Below, one piece after another: positions 4,592 through 63,887 of a stretch of 64,000 nt of DNA. Source of the stretch: Actinomycetota bacterium. GTDB taxonomy: Bacteria; Actinomycetota; JAHEXW01. The translations under genes and the position numbers were made by a program. Numbering within the stretch: position 1 is the stretch's first letter; each line of letters opens with the position of its first letter. The stretch spans positions 538,851 through 602,850 of the forward strand of contig JBAZZW010000002.1 in NCBI GenBank assembly GCA_041658625.1. The letters are read 5' to 3'. The notes below the pieces were generated by a model that was given only the letters and a program-made list of their open reading frames with translations, ran no database searches and had not been told where the DNA came from.

Positions 4592-4610
4592 TTTACGTCC
4601 ATGATTTTAC

Positions 4611-4634
4611 GGACACATTCCCGGGAATGTGTCC
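4611..4634. promoter_or_regulatory. 24-bp perfect palindrome GGACACATTCCCGGGAATGTGTCC (copy 1), between arsR-like gene and TadE-like gene
   Basis: Read directly; identical to copy 2 at 5041..5064; candidate operator or RNA hairpin. Confidence 0.5.
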
Positions 4635-5040: not shown

Positions 5041-5064
5041 GGACACATTCCCGGGAATGTGTCC
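5041..5064. promoter_or_regulatory. 24-bp perfect palindrome GGACACATTCCCGGGAATGTGTCC (copy 2), immediately upstream of arsR-like gene
   Basis: Read directly; exact duplicate of 4611..4634. Confidence 0.5.
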
Positions 5065-5070
5065 TTACTT

Positions 5071-18146: not shown

Positions 18147-18471
18147 TATGATCAGCAAATATATTTGGCCCCTCACCTCAATCCTCTCCCCGGAGGGGAG
18201 AGGCAGTAACAAAACTCGAGCACCTATTCTGCGAGTCAAGACTGAGGGTGGGCGGGAGCCTCGAACATGGGTTTCCTTGAAGTTTTTCGCGCCGCCAGCC
18301 GCCGATTAATATAAAGGATCGAGCATGCGGACATTCCACGACTCGAGCGGAGAGCATTGTTTGCTCGCCGTGGCGACCTGAAACACGGGGTCAGGCCCTA
18401 TCTCATAAGAAGAAAGGGCCTGACCCCATAGCACTAACGATGGTAGGCCGCGAGCGGCATGCTCGTCTATT

Positions 18472-21074: not shown

Positions 21075-22261
21075 ATCAACAGTATAGCAATCAGACTGGT
21101 TGACGTAACCAACAAATAGACCGAGGTGTAGCCGAAGGCGTCAATAATAGCGCCTCCCAACAAAGAGGCCGGCACTTGCGAGAGGGTGATCGAGATTGTG
21201 TCCAGGCCGTAGAACTCCCCTTCCCGGCCTTTGGGAACGAGCTCGGCGAGCAGCGCGAACGGTTCGTTGAAAAGAGGCGCGGCTCCGACGACGACAAAGA
21301 GCGCGGCCACGTAAAACATGGTCAGGTCGCGGAAGAAAAAGGCGATGACGCTGCCGATGGTAAGCGAGACCAAGCCGACCGTGACGATCTGGCGATGCCC
21401 CCACCTGTCGCCCAGCGCCCCAGCCGCGACGATGGCCCCGATTAAGAGAACGGCTCCGATAATGACGCCCGGGCCGAGCCGAAACAGTTCGGATACCTCG
21501 ACGCCGTATAGTTCTTTCAACATGATGGTCGCGAACGGCATCAGCGAGCCCAGGCCCAACCACCAGAAGAACTGCGCCGCGAAGAACAGAAGGATCTTCT
21601 TTTGCGATACCAGATCACGCATATACCGGCGAAAGTTTTTGAAGATTGAAATCTTGTCCTGGTCGGGAAGCTCCCCGCCCCTGTCTTCCCTAACCGATAT
21701 GAATGTGATGGCGGCCGTGAAGACGATAACGAAAGCCGTCAGGTAAAACAGCCAGGCCGGATTCTTAGCCCAGAACCAGCCGCCGAAACCAAGCACCAAG
21801 GCGGCTCCGAGCAGGCGCAGAAGTCCGGTGAACGTCGAATAAGCGCCGCGCCGGCCTTCCCCCGACATCTCCGGAATAAGGGCGTAGAATGGTATCTGGT
21901 AGGCGACCGAGAAGGTGAAAAACAGGCTTACCAGGAGCAGAAACACCCAGTAGTTAAGGGTGTGCGGCATGGCCGCGACGCATAGCGCCGCCAGAATAGA
22001 ACCTGCCAGTATATACGGCCGGCGCCGGCCCCACGGCGTCCAGGTGTTATCGGACAGCGTGCCCGCCAGCGGGGATAGGATGACGGAGATAACGTGCGAC
22101 AGGCTGGCCGCCACCCCGACCATAAAGTTGGACACGTTGATAAAGTCGTGCAGGTATAAGGTCGCGAAACCGAAGATAAGCGTTGTCGACATGGTGATAC
22201 CGACAACAGCGGAATTATGCCAGAGAAAACTAATAAGACGCGATGACTGTTTTTCCGCCAT
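21053..22261 (-). CDS. MFS transporter
   Basis: 402 aa; 12-TM topology with MFS-like loop motifs. Confidence 0.8.
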   Translation of the reverse strand: MAEKQSSRLISFLWHNSAVVGITMSTTLIFGFATLYLHDFINVSNFMVGVAASLSHVISVILSPLAGTLSDNTWTPWGRRRPYILAGSILAALCVAAMPHTLNYWVFLLLVSLFFTFSVAYQIPFYALIPEMSGEGRRGAYSTFTGLLRLLGAALVLGFGGWFWAKNPAWLFYLTAFVIVFTAAITFISVREDRGGELPDQDKISIFKNFRRYMRDLVSQKKILLFFAAQFFWWLGLGSLMPFATIMLKELYGVEVSELFRLGPGVIIGAVLLIGAIVAAGALGDRWGHRQIVTVGLVSLTIGSVIAFFFRDLTMFYVAALFVVVGAAPLFNEPFALLAELVPKGREGEFYGLDTISITLSQVPASLLGGAIIDAFGYTSVYLLVTSTSLIAILLMWLKSRV

Positions 22262-22934
22262 ACACTTGTTGGCCTTCCGTAATCTTGATTTCGATGTCGG
22301 TTTTGTAAATGATCAGGTCGACCTGGCTGCCGCGGTCTATAAATCCGACTTTGTCGCCGGTTTTAAGGTTCTGCCCCTCTTCCACGTAGCAGGTGATCTT
22401 GTTGACGAATTTGTCCGCTATCTCGATGACGGCGTAGTCGAAACCCGGGCCTTCGACCAGCAGACTGTTCCGCTCGTTCACCAGATGAAACTTGGCGCTG
22501 AAGTTGTCTATGGCCTGCCTTAGGTACGTAAACTTGATGTATTCCCACAAGTCGACCATGGGCACATTGGCCTTGGCTTTGGTGTAAGCGATTCGTTTTA
22601 TCTTGCCCGGCGCCGGCGCGTAGTTAAAGTGCACGTCGAAAGGCGACATGTAGATCCCGACGATCCAGCCGTCCGCGTGCTCCGGAAGATCAAGGTCGGT
22701 CAATTCGGTCAGCTTGATGTCTCGGCCAAGCTTGCTAGAAACAACCTTGCCGCCGGTGAACTTCTTGACATAGACGACCTGTCCGTCGGCGGGAGAGATG
22801 AAGACGTCGCCGGTGGCGTCGGCCGTCCGCGGCGGGTCGCGGTAGAACCAGACGAAGCGGTTCAGGAGGTATAGCGTCGTCAAAACGACTATAACCAGTA
22901 ATAAGACTATGAGGACAATATACAGTGGTTTCAT
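22230..22934 (-). CDS. psd: phosphatidylserine decarboxylase-family protein
   Basis: 234 aa; N-terminal TM anchor, PSD-like core, C-terminal region ending ...GGKTVIASY. Confidence 0.75.
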   Translation of the reverse strand: MKPLYIVLIVLLLVIVVLTTLYLLNRFVWFYRDPPRTADATGDVFISPADGQVVYVKKFTGGKVVSSKLGRDIKLTELTDLDLPEHADGWIVGIYMSPFDVHFNYAPAPGKIKRIAYTKAKANVPMVDLWEYIKFTYLRQAIDNFSAKFHLVNERNSLLVEGPGFDYAVIEIADKFVNKITCYVEEGQNLKTGDKVGFIDRGSQVDLIIYKTDIEIKITEGQQVYGGKTVIASY

Positions 22935-22941
22935 CTGCTAA

Positions 22942-22984
22942 CTTCTCGATTCCCTCGCTGCCACTCGCTCACTCGAAGAATATT
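22942..22984 (-). repeat. 43-bp conserved intergenic element (copy 1), 8 nt upstream of psd start
   Basis: CTTCTCGATTCCCTCGCTGCCACTCGCTCACTCGAAGAATATT; 41/43 identical to 24670..24712; shares AATATTCTTCGAG(T/C)GAGCG with 59915..59933. Confidence 0.5.
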
Positions 22985-23000
22985 CTTCCCTTATTCCCTG

Positions 23001-23981
23001 TTACTTTTCTTTAAGATACTTCCAGATAACGTACGGAAGTTTCGGAACGTAATACCCCGCCAACCCTGCCATCGATTTTAGCGCGGCGGCTTTGTTCTCC
23101 GGGATCGGACCTTGCTCGAAAACGCCGGTCCGGTAGCCGCTGTCCAGCGCCGTATAGGTCGCTTGGTACCCGAACTTTTCGTTAAAAGCTTTGACCTCGT
23201 CAGACGCCGTCCGTTTTATCAAATCTTCCGGGACATCGGCGATTGAGGATAACTCATTATACAGGGGAATAAGTTCTTCGACATAGCCTTTCGCGGCGAC
23301 GCCGGCGCGCACCTTGTTGTACCATTGCCGATCGAACGGCAAGCGCCTGTCCAGCTTGGCGATTGCCTCGACAGCGCGGGCCAGGACGGCGACGCGGTTT
23401 AAGTCCCAGACAGGATCTAGCACCCTTAGCTCGACCGTGCCGAGACGTTTGGCGATGATAATGTCCTGGAAGCGGTCCCGCGGATCTTCGCGCAGCTTGC
23501 CGATGGCGTAACTGTGGGCCATTCTGAAGGACTGCCCCATATATGTGCCACCCGCGTAAGGCGCGTTAATTGTCAGCAAGGTTAAAACGGGTAAGAAATA
23601 AGCCAGGTTGGCATAGGTAAGCTCTATGTCGGGGACCCCTCCGACGTGCAGCTGCAGCGCGCAGACGTTCGTCGGCGTACTTAGGTTGATCAAATGTCCG
23701 ATCGGCGCGATCAAGCCTTCCGAAACGCCGGCCAGTTCCCGCCGGCGCGCGGCCAGATCGTCCAGCAAAGAGGCGGCGTCGCCATGAACTTGCGTCGCTA
23801 CCTCCACCCCGCTCATCAACCCGTATTTTACGTCGGGACCCCGGCTGAAATTAGAGGCCGTCAGGCGGTAGTGCCGCCCCGGGTCACTCCACATAAGTTT
23901 GGACAGGTAATACAGGGATTTGAGAGAGGGCCTCTCCGGCTCGACAACGAAGACCTCTTCTTCCAGGCCGAAGGTAGCCAT
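23001..23981 (-). CDS. GCS2-family carboxylate-amine ligase-like protein (tentative)
   Basis: Start taken at ATG 23981 (MATFGLEEEVFVVEP), 1 nt after scpB stop; the track's 389-aa TTG-initiated form adds a Pro/Arg-rich extension overlapping scpB. LEEEVF and LQLHVGG motifs. Confidence 0.5.
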   Translation of the reverse strand: MATFGLEEEVFVVEPERPSLKSLYYLSKLMWSDPGRHYRLTASNFSRGPDVKYGLMSGVEVATQVHGDAASLLDDLAARRRELAGVSEGLIAPIGHLINLSTPTNVCALQLHVGGVPDIELTYANLAYFLPVLTLLTINAPYAGGTYMGQSFRMAHSYAIGKLREDPRDRFQDIIIAKRLGTVELRVLDPVWDLNRVAVLARAVEAIAKLDRRLPFDRQWYNKVRAGVAAKGYVEELIPLYNELSSIADVPEDLIKRTASDEVKAFNEKFGYQATYTALDSGYRTGVFEQGPIPENKAAALKSMAGLAGYYVPKLPYVIWKYLKEK

Positions 23982-23982
23982 C

Positions 23983-24654
23983 TTATTCCGCAGGCTTGTC
24001 CGCCGGAGCTTCAGCGGCGGCGGGCGTTTCGGCGGGCCTGCCCTCCGAAGCTTCAGCGGCGGAGGGTTCTTCCGTAGCGGCTTCCGCGGTTTCGCCGGCG
24101 AGCTTGAACCTGATCTTGCGCTGCGTCTCCTCGTCCGGTTCAAAACCTTCCAGTTCCGGCAGTTCGTCAAGGTTCTCCAACCCGAAGCTTTCTAAGAAAC
24201 GCTCGGTTGTGCCGTAGAGTGTCGGCCGGCCGATGACGTCGTCCTTGCCGATCTCTTTAACCAAGCCTTTGGCCAGCAGATTGGCCAGAACCGAATCGAC
24301 GCTGACGCCACGAATCGCCGCGATTTCAGCGCGGGTGATCGGTTGCCTATAGGCGATAATGGCCAGGGTTTCCAGACCGGCTTGGGTAAGCCTCCTGAAA
24401 TCTGATGAGAGAACCAGCTTCTCCACGTAGACGCGGTTCTTGGGATCGGTATAGAGCCGGTATCCGCCGGCGATCGCTTTCAATCTTATGCCCCGGCCGC
24501 CTTTGGCCATGTCTTCCTTAAGGTCGGCCAGCGCCTGCTTAACCTCATCTTCGTTTCTGCCGGTAAAGTCGGCCAGCTTCTTTAGAGGCAAAGGTTCATC
24601 GGTAACAAATAGTAGCGACTCTATAATTGATTTCAATTGTTGGTCATTGCCCAT
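23983..24654 (-). CDS. scpB: segregation and condensation protein B
   Basis: 223 aa; winged-helix ScpB core with Ala/Glu/Pro-rich acidic C-terminal tail. Confidence 0.85.
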   Translation of the reverse strand: MGNDQQLKSIIESLLFVTDEPLPLKKLADFTGRNEDEVKQALADLKEDMAKGGRGIRLKAIAGGYRLYTDPKNRVYVEKLVLSSDFRRLTQAGLETLAIIAYRQPITRAEIAAIRGVSVDSVLANLLAKGLVKEIGKDDVIGRPTLYGTTERFLESFGLENLDELPELEGFEPDEETQRKIRFKLAGETAEAATEEPSAAEASEGRPAETPAAAEAPADKPAE

Positions 24655-24669
24655 TTCTGATATCCTCAG

Positions 24670-24712
24670 CTTCTCGATTCCCTCGCTGACGCTCGCTCAC
24701 TCGAAGAATATT
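24670..24712 (-). repeat. 43-bp conserved intergenic element (copy 2), 16 nt upstream of scpB start
   Basis: CTTCTCGATTCCCTCGCTGACGCTCGCTCACTCGAAGAATATT; near-identical to 22942..22984. Confidence 0.5.
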
Positions 24713-24742
24713 TACTAACTACTAACCACTAACTGCTAACAG

Positions 24743-24784
24743 CTCTTGGCTCTTGGCTCTTGGCTCTTGGCTCTTGGCTCTTGG
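24743..24784. repeat. heptanucleotide tandem repeat (CTCTTGG)x6, preceded by TAAC-rich reiterations (24712..24740)
   Basis: Read directly in the 135-bp scpA-scpB spacer. Confidence 0.7.
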
Positions 24785-24789
24785 CTATT

Positions 24790-25569
24790 CTAGTCCTCAC
24801 TCCAGTGGTTTGAGTTAATCGCGGCCTCATCAACAAGCTTAACTTCGATGTCGCCGAACGTCTTGGCCTGACTGACGCCGATGACCCCGCGTTTGAAAAG
24901 CTCGAGGATGGTCAGAAAGACTACGATCTTCTCGATCCTGGACTCGGCTTTCCGGCAAAGGTAGCGGAAAGAACACGTTGGCTTCTTCTTAAGCTCTTTT
25001 AATAGGTCGACAGCCTTCTCGCCGACCGACAAGCTGTACAAAGCGATGTGGGAGGTATCAATCTCGAACGTCGGCTTAATCTGCAGAAGCTCCTGCGCCA
25101 TGATGGACAAATCGGTCAACCTTATGCCCTGCAGAAAATCGGGCGCCAGGTCGGCGAAATCCTCTTCCGGCGCCGCCACCCTCATGAAGTGATAGCTCTG
25201 CTCTTCGGCCCGCCCTGACAGTTCCGCCGACATCGCCTGGAAAGTCATGTATTCGATCAAGTGGTCTATCAGGCTTTCCCGCGACTCCATTTCCCCGCGG
25301 ATCTGTTCGATCTGGGCGGCTTCGTCGACCGGCAGCAGCGCGAAAGACTTAAGCTCCAGGAGCGTCGCCGCGATGACCAGGAACTCGCTGGTCAAATCCA
25401 GGTTAAGCTCCTTCATTTTGGTGACGTATTTCAGATAGTCGTCGGTGATCTTGGCGATGGGGACTTCGTAGATATCGACCTCTTGTTTGAGAATCAGGTC
25501 GAGCAGAAGGTCAAAAGGACCCGCGAAAACATCAAGTTTGATTTCGTAGGCCAGGGTGTCCGTGCTCAC
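24790..25569 (-). CDS. scpA: segregation and condensation protein A
   Basis: 259 aa; ScpA-like sequence; start overlaps trpS stop by 4 nt. Confidence 0.85.
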   Translation of the reverse strand: MSTDTLAYEIKLDVFAGPFDLLLDLILKQEVDIYEVPIAKITDDYLKYVTKMKELNLDLTSEFLVIAATLLELKSFALLPVDEAAQIEQIRGEMESRESLIDHLIEYMTFQAMSAELSGRAEEQSYHFMRVAAPEEDFADLAPDFLQGIRLTDLSIMAQELLQIKPTFEIDTSHIALYSLSVGEKAVDLLKELKKKPTCSFRYLCRKAESRIEKIVVFLTILELFKRGVIGVSQAKTFGDIEVKLVDEAAINSNHWSED

Positions 25570-33020: not shown

Positions 33021-33043
33021 AGTATACTCTCCGCTCTCTGGTC

Positions 33044-34132
33044 TTAGCTCTTAGCTCTTTTGATCATCTTCGCAGCGACATATCCCGCGGCGCCGGCCGC
33101 CCGGAAAAATTCAGGCTCTTCTTTAAACCCTCGCTTCATGGTCGATGGCTTCAGGTCGAACATGTCCAACGCTTCCTCGGTATTGTCGCCCGCAATTATG
33201 GCAATCCTGTGTTTAGCGGCCAGCCCCGACATATTCATTTTCATCATGACCGCTTCGTGTTTGGAAGTGTCCATCCTGGGAATCGGGACATCGCAGGTTA
33301 CCAGCGCCGCCAGCCCTAACGCGGCCACCGTTTGATCGCTAAGCCCTTGATGGCGGGCTCTTTTATCGGCAAAGTTGAGGCGCGGAATAGCGATCGGCCG
33401 GCCGCGCATCGCGGCCACCGCATTGACTATCTCGCCCTGTTCTATCCCTGAAAAACCCAAAAAGGTCTCTGTGCCCGCCACGCCGACGCCCATCGTCACA
33501 ATGGCCGCCTCCGCTCCGCCTATCGCCTTGGCGGCCGCCAGGCCGCTGAAGACGTTTACGGCCTCCAGGTCGCCGCCGAAGGCTTGTCCCGTTGTGACCG
33601 TAATATCGATCAGTTCTTTCCGTTTCAGATGCCGAACCTGTTCGCTCAAAGCCATCGGCAGAGCCGCGCGGTCAGTCATTATATAGGCGAGTTTTTTATT
33701 CATGCCCGCCTGTTTCTTGAAAACCGCGGCTGCCGGGCCGAGCTGGCTGTGGAGCGTACCGACTATTACCGGCATACCAAAAAGGTCTTTGAAATCGCGC
33801 AGCTTATCCATGTTGCCGGCGGTTTGTTCCTCAGCCGCCAGGACGTTTAACTGAAGGGGCGAGTAACGGAGCTTCATGATATGCCCGTCGGCAGGCAGGT
33901 CCAGGTCGCCATGCTTTAGGTTCCACACTACGAAATGCCAACCGCCGCTCCCCAGGGCAAGTTCGCCGGCGGTTGTATTTATGATAACCTCGTCGCCGGC
34001 GGCGACCGGTCCGGTAAGATCGGGATAGGCGATAGCTTTAGCCTCCTCGCCTGACGTCTCCACGACAAGTCTGATTATGCCTTTTTCGTCCGCGAGGATA
34101 TTCTTCACTGTCGCTTTGCGGTAAGAGGCCAT
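33044..34132 (-). CDS. conserved hypothetical protein (possibly DUF3866-like)
   Basis: 362 aa; continuous ORF, no motif I can name confidently. Confidence 0.5.
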   Translation of the reverse strand: MASYRKATVKNILADEKGIIRLVVETSGEEAKAIAYPDLTGPVAAGDEVIINTTAGELALGSGGWHFVVWNLKHGDLDLPADGHIMKLRYSPLQLNVLAAEEQTAGNMDKLRDFKDLFGMPVIVGTLHSQLGPAAAVFKKQAGMNKKLAYIMTDRAALPMALSEQVRHLKRKELIDITVTTGQAFGGDLEAVNVFSGLAAAKAIGGAEAAIVTMGVGVAGTETFLGFSGIEQGEIVNAVAAMRGRPIAIPRLNFADKRARHQGLSDQTVAALGLAALVTCDVPIPRMDTSKHEAVMMKMNMSGLAAKHRIAIIAGDNTEEALDMFDLKPSTMKRGFKEEPEFFRAAGAAGYVAAKMIKRAKS

Positions 34133-36717: not shown

Positions 36718-36964
36718 TCACCCTTCTGACCCCATTAAGGCCACAAACGGTTTTTTACATTATAGCCATAATTAGCTCTTAAATGTAGACATTTATTGCG
36801 TCATCCTGGGCTCGCGTCATGCGAACAGTCATCTTGGGGCTGCGGTTTGCAGCCGCAAGAACTAAGACGCTACTTACTTTACCAACTAAACTCGTGCCCT
36901 GTAGGACAGAAACATAATTCAGCTAAAATCGTGCATGGTGGATCGCTTTAACAAGAGATGCGTC

Positions 36965-40413: not shown

Positions 40414-40443
40414 TACTCTCTGCTCTCCGCTCTTTGCTCTCGG

Positions 40444-41229
40444 CTATTGCCCCGGTTCCGGCGTGTTCACTTGTACGTGAACGTGCGGCGTCGGAGGTTT
40501 CACGTAATCGTCAAGCTCCGAGGCAAAATACGGGCGCCAGTCACGAGGAATCCCCATAACGGTTTTCCCCTGCTTCACCTTATCGCCCGGTTTGACCTTG
40601 ATTTGATCTATATGCAAGAACGCCACCCGGACGTTTGGCAATCCGTCCGGCACCACTTCCACTTGCAGGTCCTCGAATTCTTCGTAGATGACTTTCGATT
40701 CGATTTTTATGACCGTCCCGCTGACCGGGGCCAAAACCGGTGTGCCCGGGTCCATGGCGATGTCGGCCACGGTCGTGCCGTACGCATATTCGCCGCGAGT
40801 CTCCATTATATAATACGTCGGAAGTTGAGCCTTACTATCGAGCGACACGTCTACGTCCGAGCCGTTGTCGTTTATAAGACACTGCCCGATCGGCGTCAGG
40901 GAATAAGCCCGCAAATGGCTTGATTCATGGTACCCGATGCCCCGAATGTTCTTATACGGGGCATATAGGTATAACGTCAGCCCGAGTTCCGGCACGGTCG
41001 CGAACGGTAGAATCAGTTTTGATGTCCGCTTTTTAGCGGTGTCGGTGGCCGTTTCTATGGTGTCTGAGGCCGGCTTGATCGTCATGGCCGATTTGACCGC
41101 TTTGGCGGCCCAGGCGGAACGGGCGACTCTGGTCACCGTCCAGGCTCCGGCAACCAGCGCAAGCACGACGACCGCGCCTAGTGCCCAATACAACGACCAG
41201 ATCCGGAAGTGTTCTCTGACGGGGTTCAT
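40444..41229 (-). CDS. hypothetical membrane-anchored protein (possibly metallopeptidase-like)
   Basis: 261 aa; N-terminal TM helix, extracytoplasmic domain; no confident family. Confidence 0.45.
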   Translation of the reverse strand: MNPVREHFRIWSLYWALGAVVVLALVAGAWTVTRVARSAWAAKAVKSAMTIKPASDTIETATDTAKKRTSKLILPFATVPELGLTLYLYAPYKNIRGIGYHESSHLRAYSLTPIGQCLINDNGSDVDVSLDSKAQLPTYYIMETRGEYAYGTTVADIAMDPGTPVLAPVSGTVIKIESKVIYEEFEDLQVEVVPDGLPNVRVAFLHIDQIKVKPGDKVKQGKTVMGIPRDWRPYFASELDDYVKPPTPHVHVQVNTPEPGQ

Positions 41230-42881: not shown

Positions 42882-43706
42882 TTACTTCTTCTCCAGCGCC
42901 TCATGCGCCTCATCAACAACCTTTTTGATACGAGTCTCGATTTCCAGCTCTTTGCTCTCCGCTCTCCGCTCTCCGCTACTTTGCTTCATCCAGGCCAAGA
43001 ATTCTATGTTCCCCTCGGCCCCGGTCACGGGCGAATAGGTCAATCCCATAAGCCTTAATCCGCGGCCGTTCAAACGCGAAATCACGTCCGCGAGTATCTC
43101 TTCGTGCCGGGAAGCCTCCCTTATTATACCGCCTTTGCCGACCTTGCCTTTACCGGCTTCGAACTGGGGTTTTATTAGAAAAATAAAATCCGCGTCTGGC
43201 TCGCTTAGACTAACCAAAGCCTCCGCGACCGTAACCAAAGATATGAACGACAGATCGGCCGTTATAACCTCGGCTTTGGCGGGCAGGTCTTCGGATGTAA
43301 GGTGACGGACGTTGGTCCTTTCCAGAACCAGCACGCGCGGGTCTTGCCTGAGCTTCCAGGCCAGCTGGCCGTAACCGACGTCTACGGCCATGACGCTGGC
43401 AGCCCCGCGCTCAAGCAGGACTTCGGTGAAGCCTCCCGTTGAGGCGCCGGCGTCCAGAGCGACGCGTCCCTTAACCTCAAGGTCGAAAACATCCAGCGCC
43501 CTGTTTAGTTTGTCCGCGCCTCGCGACACATACGCGTTATCAGGCTCGACATAAACAGAAGCCCGGTTATCCGTAGCGGCTCCGGGCTTATCGGCGATAT
43601 TGTTTTCGATTCTAACCCGCCCGGCCATGATGGCCCGGCGCGCTTTCTCCCTGCTCTCAAAGATGCCCCGCTCGACCAGCAGGGCATCCAGCCTCATCTT
43701 AGTCAT
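42882..43706 (-). CDS. tlyA: TlyA-family rRNA (cytidine-2'-O)-methyltransferase
   Basis: 274 aa; N-terminal S4 domain (RLDALLVERG) and FtsJ-like MTase domain (LDAGASTGGFT). Confidence 0.85.
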   Translation of the reverse strand: MTKMRLDALLVERGIFESREKARRAIMAGRVRIENNIADKPGAATDNRASVYVEPDNAYVSRGADKLNRALDVFDLEVKGRVALDAGASTGGFTEVLLERGAASVMAVDVGYGQLAWKLRQDPRVLVLERTNVRHLTSEDLPAKAEVITADLSFISLVTVAEALVSLSEPDADFIFLIKPQFEAGKGKVGKGGIIREASRHEEILADVISRLNGRGLRLMGLTYSPVTGAEGNIEFLAWMKQSSGERRAESKELEIETRIKKVVDEAHEALEKK

Positions 43707-59864: not shown

Positions 59865-59988
59865 AAACATACCCTCTCCACTCAAGAACCCCCCCCTTTT
59901 TTTTGAGCTCGCAAAATATTCTTCGAGCGAGCGCTAATTACGAGCTTGCCCTGAGCTAGTCGAAGGGTCGAGAAGGGAGGGCGCCGCT

Positions 59989-60159
59989 CGCTGGACAAAC
60001 CCGGCTATGCTCTTTAATATTGTTTAAGTGCGAATACGGGTGATTAGCTCAGGGGGGAGAGCGCTTCCCCTGACACGAAACTCGTGTACCATGCCCAAGC
60101 CCCATCTCATCTGCAGGTATAACACTCTTTTGGAATCCGCCGTCGCTATGTAAGTGCAC
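59989..60159 (+). repeat. ~170-bp direct repeat, copy 1 (contains tRNA D-arm-like TAGCTCAGGGGGGAGAGCGC)
   Basis: Aligned by eye with copy 2 at 62542..62710; high identity over most of its length with a few indels. Confidence 0.6.
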
Positions 60160-60657: not shown

Positions 60658-61023
60658 ATTGCCCTAGTCTTCCCTTTATAATCCACACCTCGGCCGTTAC
60701 CGTGAATTGCAGAGGAGTTATTCCCGCAATAGAGATAAGGATTGAGCGCCAACCTGTCCGTCGCCTGCTGCGGCATAGCGTCCCGGGAGATGAACCTGCC
60801 GGTCGCAGGATTGTAATACCTGGCGTTTAAGTAATACATCCCGGTCTTGTTACCTGGGGTCAGGCCCTGTCGCTTAAGAGGAGAGGGCCTGACCCCAAAG
60901 CCGACCCAATGGATTCCCGAAGGTGCCTGTCGCAACGATATTCTTGGCTGTCAAGTTGCTTCCGTCCCAGACCCAGGCATATTCCGTCGGGTTCCCCCGG
61001 GCGTCATAAGCCCAGCTCCGTCA
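60654..61023 (-). pseudogene. RHS/YD-repeat protein C-terminal remnant (frameshifted), ending in a short C-terminal tip
   Basis: ORF 60654..60935 encodes MYYLNARYYNPATGRFISRD...NPYLYCGNN (RHS core end); upstream a different frame encodes YDARGNPTEYAWVWDGSNLTAKNIVATG; no intact N-terminal RHS body. Confidence 0.55.
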
Positions 61024-61202
61024 TGGCGTCATCCTGGGCTCCGTGTCTTCTAGGAGCGCAGGAACTCAGACGCTGCTATTCATTCAAGTATAATCGTGCC
61101 CTGAGAGTCAAGACCTTGCCGCCAAGACATCCCCATGATTATTCAAAACACAATAATGAGTGATCCAGTACTTGACTTTTCACATGCAATATTGCATTAT
61201 GA

Positions 61203-62453: not shown

Positions 62454-62541
62454 CGACTCTTTGGCTTATCTTAAAAGTTCACTTCGATTTGGGGAATATC
62501 TTATAGATTTCTGACACCGCTATGTTCGCGAAGGATTTGCC

Positions 62542-62710
62542 CGCTGGACAAACAAGCCTATGCTCTTTAATATTGTTTAAGTGCGATTACGGGTGATTAG
62601 CTCAGGGGGAGAGCGCTTCCCTGACACGGAATTCGTACACTGACTTCATTCCCCTTCCCATCTGCAGGTATAACACTCTCTGGGAATATATAGCGCGTCC
62701 GTAAGTGCAC
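62542..62710 (+). repeat. ~170-bp direct repeat, copy 2
   Basis: Aligned by eye with 59989..60159; followed at 62738..62793 by a tail element that also occurs at about 5925..5980. Confidence 0.6.
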
Positions 62711-62909: not shown

Positions 62910-63887
62910 TTACTGTGACTTCTTGATAAATTCTCGAATTGGCTCAAACTGTTGATAGTCAAAAGCCGCAATATGATAAGGCAATGCGCTCAAGGAGCTA
63001 CATGAATCGTCTAAATGGTTCTCCACATAAGAATTTATTAACATATCTAAAGTGTCATCCATGTTGACGACATCCATGTAGTACGGATCAAGTTCCTTAC
63101 CCGTTTCATAGATATTCAAAAACCGCCCCTTCGAGTCAACGTGATTAGCGTAGAAAGCACCTATACCTATTTTGGCAGCTGAAATCTTCTCGTAACGGTC
63201 CTTGAATCCTCCGAACACCCGTGGCTCCAGATGCCGAAACTTCCATATTCGAAATTCCCCGGTTTTCATTGTTAAATCTCTCAATTCTGCAACTATTTTG
63301 AGGAATCCTTCGCGAGTCCTTTCTGAAAAAGCCTTAATAATAGTTCCCGATTCTTCTCTTTTGACAATATCATCCGGAGCAATAACGTTCGTCCTTGAAA
63401 AGACAGATTGTGTAATATCATCTATCAATAGACAACACGTTTTCAGGTATTCCGGATTGTCAGTCGAGTGTCGAAAAACATCTGAGATTCCTGGGATCAA
63501 ATCATATATATATCCAAGCTCCTCACTTTTCTCAACACAAGCATCGATCAATTCAAGCATATTTGTGTCGCTTAGGTTTGAATGAATGACTAGCTTCATA
63601 GCGTCCCAATGACCTTCGTAGTCTGAAAAAAGACAGAGTCCACGTAAGAACCAAGACTCCTTGATGTTTGGATTTTCATCAATGATTTCTTCCAAGATCG
63701 CATTGGCCTTTTTGAAGTCTCCGAACGACATATAGGTTCTGGCTATATCAATATTCCTGCCACCCTTTTTTGTGGCCGAGTCAAACTCAAGTGCTGAATC
63801 ACAATAGGGGCATCTTGTTATACTGGCATTCGATGCTGGATCGAGTTGACCACCACAGCTGGGGCAGGAAAGCTTTCGTACCTCCAT
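62910..63887 (-). CDS. hypothetical protein with N-terminal zinc-ribbon (CPSCGG...CPYC) and helical (TPR-like) region
   Basis: 325 aa; AT-rich gene; no family recognised. Confidence 0.5.
   Translation of the reverse strand: MEVRKLSCPSCGGQLDPASNASITRCPYCDSALEFDSATKKGGRNIDIARTYMSFGDFKKANAILEEIIDENPNIKESWFLRGLCLFSDYEGHWDAMKLVIHSNLSDTNMLELIDACVEKSEELGYIYDLIPGISDVFRHSTDNPEYLKTCCLLIDDITQSVFSRTNVIAPDDIVKREESGTIIKAFSERTREGFLKIVAELRDLTMKTGEFRIWKFRHLEPRVFGGFKDRYEKISAAKIGIGAFYANHVDSKGRFLNIYETGKELDPYYMDVVNMDDTLDMLINSYVENHLDDSCSSLSALPYHIAAFDYQQFEPIREFIKKSQ

Follow-up and report, generated by a model that had tools for sequence, protein, structure and literature searches.

Two near-identical elements upstream of psd and scpB belong to a dispersed hairpin-repeat family, probably the cognate repeat of a small GIY-YIG nuclease clade

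A 64,000-nucleotide stretch of DNA from an Actinomycetota bacterium (GenBank assembly GCA_041658625.1, contig JBAZZW010000002.1), which we call the window, carries scpA, scpB, a GCS2/YbdK-like gene and psd in that order on its - strand, and near-identical elements of 43 base pairs (bp) lie just before the start codons of scpB and psd (Table 1). An initial annotation of this DNA pointed out the two elements and offered three explanations for them: a shared promoter or operator, a 5'-untranslated-region (5'-UTR) RNA element, or a small dispersed repeat. Here we describe the family of directional hairpin repeats to which both elements belong, its absence from the same junctions of close relatives and its association with genes for small GIY-YIG proteins, and we weigh what these observations imply for the origin of the elements.

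Results

Elements in the window

The pattern CTTCTCGATTCCCTCGCTGMCRCTCGCTCACTCGAAGAATATT matches the window exactly twice, at copies 1 and 2 of Table 1; allowing up to three mismatches adds no further match in the window, and none of 100 dinucleotide shuffles contains the pattern. The two copies are identical at 41 of 43 bases, as the initial annotation had it, and on the - strand, which is the functional strand of both, they read AATATTCTTCGAGTGAGCGAG[T/C]G[G/T]CAGCGAGGGAATCGAGAAG. Both stand upstream of an ATG as described there, with gaps of 7 and 15 nucleotides (nt) instead of the 8 and 16 that had been given. Similarity between the copies stops exactly at the borders of the 43-mer and the flanks are unrelated (GGGAAG and TTAGCAG around one copy versus TTAGTA and CTGAGG around the other). 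Three independent assemblies, two of them from ENA samples and one from a JGI sample, agree on this sequence, which excludes an assembly artefact. Copy 1 belongs to a variant with three modules, and T.G closes its apical loop; copy 2 has C for T at unit position 22, giving a C-G closing pair, and the other differing position, 24, is a loop base.

An expanded relative had also been noticed at 59915. It is real and longer than was stated, forming a complete unit of 61 nt on the + strand (copy 3), with the same AATATT tail, 5' box TTCGAGCG and 3' box TCGAGAAG as the 43-mers and, by a census with regular expressions, a 38-nt insert between the boxes. The hairpin module nested in copy 3 follows the grammar of the main unit (Watson-Crick, G.A, A.G, Watson-Crick), and the same CCCTGAG-CTAGT-CGAAGGG module is found inside units of other genomes in either orientation. 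A unit in a metagenome-assembled genome (MAG) labelled Paceibacterota (L026) is identical to copy 3 at 57 of 61 positions. At three units in 64 kilobases (kb), the density of units in the window is low.

A dispersed family of units

Scanning one genome per GTDB species with the 19-mer AATATTCTTCGAGYGAGCG as query gave 103 loci, against a chance expectation that we put at ~10. Complete units are present in 74 of the 103; the other loci, mostly in Bacteroidota, Ignavibacteriota and Acidobacteriota, are coincidences in coding sequence. Complete units occur in MAGs labelled Omnitrophota, Patescibacteria, Actinomycetota, Planctomycetota and Gammaproteobacteria, and an identical 34-mer, AATATTCTTCGAGCGAGCGAAGCGAGTCGAGAAG, recurs at 13 loci labelled Omnitrophota (one of them in a single-cell genome), three labelled Patescibacteria, two labelled Planctomycetota and two labelled Actinomycetota, several of these on contigs of 119-527 kb.

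Units share a layout of (W)ATATT, a first stem base S, TTCGAGCG, a variable part of 3-60 nt, (G)AG, TCGAGAA and S'. Of 174 units, 118 have AATATT as the hexamer before S, and TATT ends most of the remaining variants listed. Units are arranged as singlets, as head-to-head dyads that share a palindromic AATATT, as tail-to-tail dyads and as arrays of 5' halves.

A covariance model, R1, was seeded with 19 distinct 34-nt units from other genomes only, with zero window sequences. It scores both 43-mers at 41.6 bits (E = 1.6e-7) and recovers exactly the boundaries drawn in the initial annotation; it matches copy 3 in part (16.4 bits, E = 0.16) and finds nothing in the 64-kb window beyond the three copies. 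In 559 kb of loci it detects 195 units, mostly intergenic. Both 43-mers belong to a dispersed hairpin-repeat family, and the suggestion of a small dispersed repeat holds good, each 43-mer being a single unit from a large family spread over many genomes.

Other genomes were viewed as 8-kb slices and the context statistics rest on crude calls of open reading frames (ORFs); Gammaproteobacteria-labelled loci are excluded from the counts. There are 26 head-to-head dyads, 6 tail-to-tail dyads and 53 singlets. Of 55 clusters, 49 have co-directional neighbours, five convergent and one divergent. Solo units are sense in 16 cases and antisense in 11, and in 12 of 15 head-to-head dyads the C..G-type unit is sense and nearest the downstream gene. 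ORFs between closely spaced units are all housekeeping genes, and the protein families that recur beside units across phyla are glycosyltransferases and ABC ATPases, not transposases.

Rfam 15 gave no match at gathering threshold in the window, and permissive searches at the elements and at four full dyads gave nothing relevant. The full dyad is unmatched in plasmid and phage collections, the single match among viral contigs is unconfirmed by R1, and two metagenome pattern scans for the window's own subfamily returned no match. Literature searches with unit sequence strings produced only irrelevant results and no description of the motif, and searches for repeats in Omnitrophota or the candidate phyla radiation (CPR) found nothing.

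The Gammaproteobacteria-labelled MAG CAZTFV01 has a tail-to-tail dyad as the core of a true miniature inverted-repeat transposable element (MITE), which lies on many contigs (L008, L041, L045, L070, L085, L091, L092, L105 and others) and has terminal inverted repeats of ~23 bp (GTAATNNNTCAGGATTTGACAAA or GTAACAGGTCA...) and 8-bp target-site duplications. L045 also contains a group I intron.

Fold of the unit

For the purine-rich strand we propose a clamp of C1-G28, T2-A27, T3-A26 and C4-G25 (CTTC/GAAG), a stem that continues through tandem G.A/A.G, G7-C22, a bulged T21, C8-G20 and a second tandem G.A/A.G, and an apex of G11-C17 and C12-G16 followed by a GNA loop. Compensatory base changes support this fold. 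In the 19 seed sequences 99.3% of cells are paired, four of eight pairs show a compensatory change and none of 500 shuffles reaches the observed score. An alignment of 88 distinct units, which was fitted to R1 and so favours the structure somewhat, has 98.9% of cells in standard pairs and 53 compensatory cells versus 11.6 in shuffles. Across these 88 units, pair 1-28 is CG in 60 and GC in 25; pair 8-20 is CG in 75, UA in 8 and UG in 3; and pair 11-17 is GC in 49, AU in 9, GU in 7 and UA in 4. Slid registers drop to 25-66% paired. The 67 distinct variable inserts of at least 13 nt also fold better than shuffles (mean z = -1.9, with 31 of 67 below -2); a first simple hairpin finder did not separate inserts from shuffles, and register-anchored and z-score tests were used instead.

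The arms of the unit are at once direct and "inverted" repeats because 5'-CGAG-3' self-pairs through tandem G.A. The variant found in the 43-mers has three N-GA-N modules, one more than the canonical two. It is the purine-rich strand that carries the G.A modules, the GNA loops and the G.T intermediates. Most apical loops are C-GNA-G, and canonical units have GCGAAGC, GCGTAGC, GCGGAGC or GCGCAGC at the apex, like the d(GCGNAGC) mini-hairpin, which is extraordinarily stable in DNA, beyond standard models (PMC13037366); longer apices are of the CC-GAA-GG type. Unlike the mini-hairpin, which is a structural motif and not a genetic element, the apex here caps a longer conserved stem.

Orthologous junctions

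We compared the operon with the related contigs L108, L109, L110, L111, L112/113, L114 and L115, among which L108 is closest on every shared gene, at 83-92% amino-acid identity (88-92% for the operon). The elements at the scpB and psd junctions are insertion polymorphisms (Table 1). L111 has a unit of the AATATT family at its scpA/scpB junction, as the window does, and compensatory differences in this unit (modules T..A versus C..G) preserve the fold. None of the seven comparisons has a unit of the family at the psd junction, and the psd copy is specific to the window's lineage. Because the two 43-mers are identical at 41 of 43 positions, the psd copy is most simply, and probably, a recent intragenomic copy of the scpB copy. 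Spacers in the relatives are too diverged for a clean comparison of empty and filled sites. The lack of the element at both junctions in the closest relatives means that it is no conserved promoter, operator or leader. The operon junctions are hot spots with a rapid turnover of different small hairpin elements.

A second hairpin-repeat family is represented in the window at ~18165-18210 (- strand) by CCTCTCCCC-TCC-GGGGAGAGG-ATTGAGGTGAGGGG. It also occurs upstream of scpB in L112/L113 and at the GCS2/psd junction of L114, and it adjoins AATATT units in L016 and L026. Hairpins resembling NTS, a Neisseria repeat taken up in the Discussion, lie at the same junctions of relatives (GTCATTGCGAG...GCAATCTC and GTCATTCCCGCGAAAGCGGGAATC; L115:2375-2410 and L112:1820-1870) and beside AATATT units in L009, L043 and L052; a strict regular expression for the SRM motif, also taken up there, leaves them unmatched. 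It seems that several families of small hairpins use common insertion hot spots.

Association with GIY-YIG genes

One locus of the family, L059, contains an ORF of 91 amino acids (aa) with GIY-YIG as its only domain (PF01541, E = 1.7e-13). A unit ends 1 nt before its ATG and a tail-to-tail dyad lies 4 nt after its stop. Searching with the L059 protein gave 102 homologues, almost all of 82-108 aa (range 68-121), all annotated PF01541 and all but six 58-100% identical. Four of them were picked on protein similarity and contig size alone and the DNA around them was fetched; depositors label them Omnitrophica, Parcubacteria and Patescibacteria, with one unlabelled, and their neighbourhoods differ (GT2/epimerase, hisS/EamA, clpB/mnmA and tyrS/purH). 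In all four, R1 units abut the gene, with the best unit 3-32 nt upstream in the sense orientation and/or an inverted unit or dyad after the stop. All 15 R1 matches in ~21 kb of distinct DNA fall within 260 nt of the GIY-YIG gene, for which a rough estimate of the probability by chance is of the order of 1e-6.

Units are tightly associated with the GIY-YIG gene in all five neighbourhoods. Four genes are flanked on both sides by units that end 1-32 nt before the ATG and start 1-87 nt after the stop; in L121 units are found only downstream, 33 nt after the stop. The module reads AATATT-unit, gene, inverted unit-AATA. The C-terminal RE.QIK.W...KK..LI motif of the nuclease presumably resembles that of the Ssn (cd10448) family, and we take it as a lead only. 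The HisRS ORF called in L117 extends across the upstream unit and into the start of the nuclease gene.

Table 1. Units, genes, orthologous junctions and GIY-YIG modules, with positions in the window unless a contig is named
Feature	Position	Strand	Details
Copy 1, solo unit	22942-22984	-	AATATT-C-TTCGAGTG-AGCGAGTGGCAGCGAGGGAA-TCGAGAA-G; 7 nt before psd ATG
Copy 2, solo unit	24670-24712	-	15 nt before scpB ATG; followed by GAGGA Shine-Dalgarno sequence
Copy 3	59915-59975	+	Complete 61-nt unit, downstream of hicBA-like pair
Nested hairpin module in copy 3	59949-59967	+	CCCTGAG-CTAGT-CGAAGGG, read from sequence
Unpaired 5' tail AATATT, copy 1	22979-22984	-	
Unpaired 5' tail, copy 2	24707-24712	-	
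Unpaired 5' tail, copy 3	59915-59920	+	
psd	22230-22934	-	PF02666, 8e-39
GCS2/YbdK-like gene	23001-23981	-	
scpB	23983-24654	-	PF04079, 8e-56
scpA	24790-25569	-	
Unit as oligonucleotide			d(CTTCGAGCGAGCGAAGCGAGTCGAGAAG)
scpA/scpB junction, L108			Genes overlap by 4 nt; without element
scpA/scpB junction, L114			Stop/start overlap; without element
scpA/scpB junction, L109 and L110			11-nt spacer; without element
scpA/scpB junction, L111 and window			Unit of AATATT family (L111: 46.7 bits)
scpA/scpB junction, L115			GTCATTGCGAG...GCAATCTC hairpin
Upstream of scpB, L112/113			GGGGAGAGG...GGTGAGGGG element; comparison covers DNA just upstream of scpB
GCS2-like gene/psd junction, L108			11 nt; without element
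Unit-GIY-YIG-unit module	L117:2464-2800		
Unit-GIY-YIG-unit module	L130:2379-2818		
Unit-GIY-YIG-unit module	L116:2365-3029		
Unit-GIY-YIG-unit module	L121:2822-2884		
Unit-GIY-YIG-unit module	L059:45-520		

Other repeats in the window

Short tandem arrays of 7-mers occupy spacers between co-directional genes at 24713-24789 (- strand), 33021-33060, 40414-40446 and 42934-42992; the array between the scpA stop and the element, for example, is (CCAAGAG)x6 followed by (NNGTTAG)x4. The same junctions in relatives have arrays of 8-9-mers (GGAAGATT, GGGATTATA and GGAGTATAG), often directly upstream of a hairpin element. All these 7-9-mer arrays are purine-rich and Shine-Dalgarno-like. A 42-bp imperfect tandem duplication at 23986-24066, in the 3' end of scpB, extends an acidic, alanine-rich C-terminal tail, and the ScpB of the window has 223 aa versus 194-210 in most relatives.

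A direct repeat of ~150-170 bp (77-93% identity) lies at 59986-60136 and 62539-62687. Its 5' part is degenerate and tRNA-like, with an Rfam tRNA score of 23.6 bits, below threshold, and no tRNA found by ARAGORN; an integrase-sized ORF (62910-63887) is nearby, and the repeats may be what is left of the attachment sites of an integrated element. A near-perfect 26-bp palindrome, GGACACATTCCCGGGAATGTGTCC, occurs twice (4608-4634 and 5041-5067), in short spacers upstream of two small - strand genes, and looks like an operator. A GC-rich hairpin, GGGGTCAGGCCCT...AGGGCCTGACCCC, repeated at 18387-18432 and 60856-60901 with 87% identity, looks like a terminator. An intergenic segment of ~90 nt, GTCATCYTGGGG...GCGCARGAACTMAGACGCT...TCGTGCCCTG, is common to ~36800-36900 and 61020-61110.

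Discussion

Ssn proteins (cd10448) are site-specific nucleases that consist of a single GIY-YIG domain of ~94 aa (Chenal et al. 2025, PMC11893778). Their target is a genomic hairpin repeat (NTS or SRM), bound on one strand and only as single-stranded DNA (ssDNA), and the cut falls upstream of the hairpin; 71% of ssn genes have at least one flanking repeat and 42% have repeats on both sides, an architecture noted as being like that of an insertion sequence (IS) (PMC11893778). The AATATT family is like the Ssn/SRM system (NTS/dRS3 of Neisseria; PMC11893778) in many respects. A small single-domain GIY-YIG gene, here the L059 ORF and its homologues of ~90-100 aa, is bracketed by hairpin repeats of 20-50 nt, as we found in five neighbourhoods, and the NTS-ssnA-NTS architecture is matched. 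A conserved unpaired sequence 5' of the hairpin gives the repeat its orientation, and many intergenic copies are scattered through genomes of several phyla. The sequence motifs, in contrast, are unrelated (AATATT with CTTCGAGCG...CGAGTCGAGAAG here versus CGTCATTCCCGCG...GCGGGAATC as published). Tandem G.A modules and a bulged T build the stem here, the hosts (CPR, Omnitrophota and others) are absent from that paper, and there is no nuclease gene in the window. Ssn/SRM is the closest known system, matching in architecture and logic and differing in sequence motif.

We consider it likely that the 43-mers are units of a hairpin repeat cognate to a clade of ~90-aa GIY-YIG nucleases and that they are insertions into operon junctions rather than gene-specific regulators. 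Each unit is strand-specific, with an unpaired AATATT tail followed by a stem made of the CTTC/GAAG clamp, two or three N-GA-N modules, a bulged T and a variable apical hairpin. The genes of its single-domain nucleases, bracketed by inverted units, would form an IS-like module. Given the order unit, gene, inverted unit, gene-less tail-to-tail dyads look like deletion derivatives of this module and the window's solo units like single ends; head-to-head dyads, too, may be gene-less derivatives. If it works like Ssn, the nuclease would act on single-stranded DNA only, such as arises in replication, transformation or repair, binding the purine-rich strand in its folded form and cutting within or close to the 5' AATATT tail. 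The repeat-gene-repeat module may be, or may have been, mobile and have seeded gene-less copies. The scpB copy and its near-identical psd counterpart would then be insertions into operon junctions that are carried in the operon mRNA. Copies 1 and 2 fold on the G-rich, gene-rich - strand, the presumptive lagging-strand template; this placement is weakly compatible with an ssDNA mechanism, skew and gene orientation being confounded.

Several observations weigh against this interpretation. The SRM consensus HGTCWYN(0-2)YYVSBRHN(0-5)WNVSBRGN(0-2)RNCYNB matches neither the canonical unit nor the three copies nor any part of the window, in a search whose control, the NTS consensus, was matched. The nearest PDB chains to the nuclease clade are the UPF0213 proteins 1zg2 and 1ywl, and no NCBIfam model fits it. 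Named homologues of the L059 protein come from Patescibacteria (CPR) groups and Omnitrophica only, with none from Actinomycetota, and taxon labels throughout are those of depositors. A GIY-YIG ORF is absent from the 64-kb window, from the relatives' loci and from the other 8-kb family loci except L059, so the window copies may be orphans. The fold, moreover, is not singled out by energy. The covariation-supported structure has -4.4 kcal/mol versus -5.4 for the minimum-free-energy structure with RNA parameters, and +0.9 with DNA parameters; folded as RNA or DNA, the 43-mers and the whole spacers have energies no better than shuffles; and the outer helix has an alternative TCGA/TCGA register, which energy does not discriminate and which is opposed only by the covariation of pair 1-28 and the T-to-C variation at the bulge. 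The stability of d(GCGNAGC) outside standard models is consistent with this behaviour of nearest-neighbour energies, and thermodynamic prediction alone was not used as evidence.

Among other explanations, the one that fares best, which is possible and still rather doubtful, is that the three window copies are inert relics, orphan units without a cognate nuclease that are tolerated as short intergenic hairpins. Their low density fits this, as do the lack of a GIY-YIG ORF in the window, the restriction of named nuclease homologues to CPR or Omnitrophica, the atypical variant with three modules and a G.G mismatch, and the rapid turnover of different hairpin elements at the same junctions in relatives. 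The near-identity of the two 43-mers, however, argues for recent copying, the compensatory differences in the L111 unit suggest continued constraint at the scpB junction, and the nuclease was looked for in only 64 kb of this genome.

A bolder version of the nuclease-repeat account, which we regard as unlikely, makes the unit-GIY-YIG-unit module an autonomous IS-like mobile element, with the nuclease mobilising the hairpin ends: a new class of bacterial ssDNA transposon. Such an element would spawn gene-less dyads and solo units, nest in its own loops and cross phyla among co-occurring groundwater lineages (CPR, Omnitrophota, Actinomycetota and Planctomycetota). If true, it would be a new mobile-element class rather than a domesticated host system.

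A role at the level of RNA is less probable again. The elements would be leader or intercistronic hairpins that set the processing, stability or translation of the downstream cistron, for example through an RNase E-type cut in AAUAUU that leaves a protective 5' hairpin, or through a hairpin that bridges a displaced Shine-Dalgarno sequence to the start codon. Both window copies are indeed sense and close to start codons, C..G-type units are sense in 28 of ~40 informative cases, G.U intermediates occur among the covarying pairs, and the ancestral AAGG-type Shine-Dalgarno sequence of psd now lies upstream of the element, where, speculatively, a folded hairpin might hold it close to the start codon. 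A side effect of this kind is possible, given that the copies are co-transcribed in the sense direction, and to that extent the 5'-UTR reading of the initial annotation survives. It does not explain the family, because the units precede housekeeping genes that are unrelated to one another, ~30% of units lie in the antisense direction, the paired copies of dyads lie on opposite strands and no Rfam family matches. Orthologous junctions are without the element, identical 34-mers across phyla are unexpected for host-specific RNA signals, and C-GNA-G triloops are a hallmark of DNA rather than RNA (PMC13037366).

It is very unlikely that the family is a REP/REPIN-type element mobilised by an HUH tyrosine transposase (RAYT or IS200/IS605 TnpA) and not by a GIY-YIG protein. 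The units are like REPs and REPINs in being short extragenic palindromes with an unpaired tag at the end, frequent inverted doublets and unidirectional or convergent settings (PMC3733652, PMC3116915), and in probably being non-autonomous and dependent on a single-copy enzyme gene flanked by repeats. The tag, however, is (A)ATATT and not GTAG or CGTC, the gene bracketed by units in all five neighbourhoods is GIY-YIG and not HUH/Y1, and near-identical units span phyla, whereas REP families are usually lineage-specific. A phmmer search of 4,700 ORFs from ~750 kb of loci and the window, with IS200 TnpA and E. coli RAYT queries of limited sensitivity, found no IS200- or RAYT-like ORF.

Two further classes of element share features with the units. 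MITEs such as Correia/CREE and RUP are also small, gene-less, intergenic and multicopy, but neither terminal inverted repeats (other than the hairpin itself) nor a target-site duplication are seen in the window copies or in most others. Unrelated flanks and the lack of duplication set the window copies apart from MITEs, and only the CAZTFV01 composite element has both features of a MITE. Integron attC sites resemble the units as folded single strands that combine conserved boxes with an extrahelical base, unpaired internal positions and a terminal structure that varies; unlike them, the units have no RYYYAAC...GTTRRRY boxes and are of opposite polarity (GTTC...GAAC or CTTC...GAAG), and there are no cassette arrays and no intI gene, the neighbours being housekeeping genes.

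A shared promoter or operator that co-regulates psd and scpB is scarcely credible: near-identical sequences just upstream of two start codons speak for it, but a consensus scan found no sigma-70-like -35 or -10 hexamers in the elements and a sigma-54 reading was also rejected, psd and scpB belong to a co-directional operon that, in the closest relative, has overlapping or 11-nt junctions and no element, units occur in both orientations and just one of the 55 family clusters lies between divergent genes, where promoters would be expected, and the covarying pairs point to folding of a single strand and not to recognition of a duplex.

If the 43-mers are nuclease-cognate repeats inserted into operon junctions, as we favour, the pairing of a tiny GIY-YIG ssDNA nuclease with a hairpin repeat would extend to CPR, Omnitrophota and other uncultivated lineages. 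Its recognition motif, unrelated to the published one, would be a new candidate specificity for ssDNA tools, and the combination of tandem G.A modules, a bulged T and a GNA mini-hairpin is a concrete structure that can be tested. The 34-mers that are identical across phyla are a possible marker of DNA exchange among ultra-small groundwater bacteria. For annotation the elements carry a warning: a near-identical motif before two start codons can be a selfish or nuclease-target repeat and not a regulator, and such repeats fill operon junctions, create spurious ORFs and distort gene calls.

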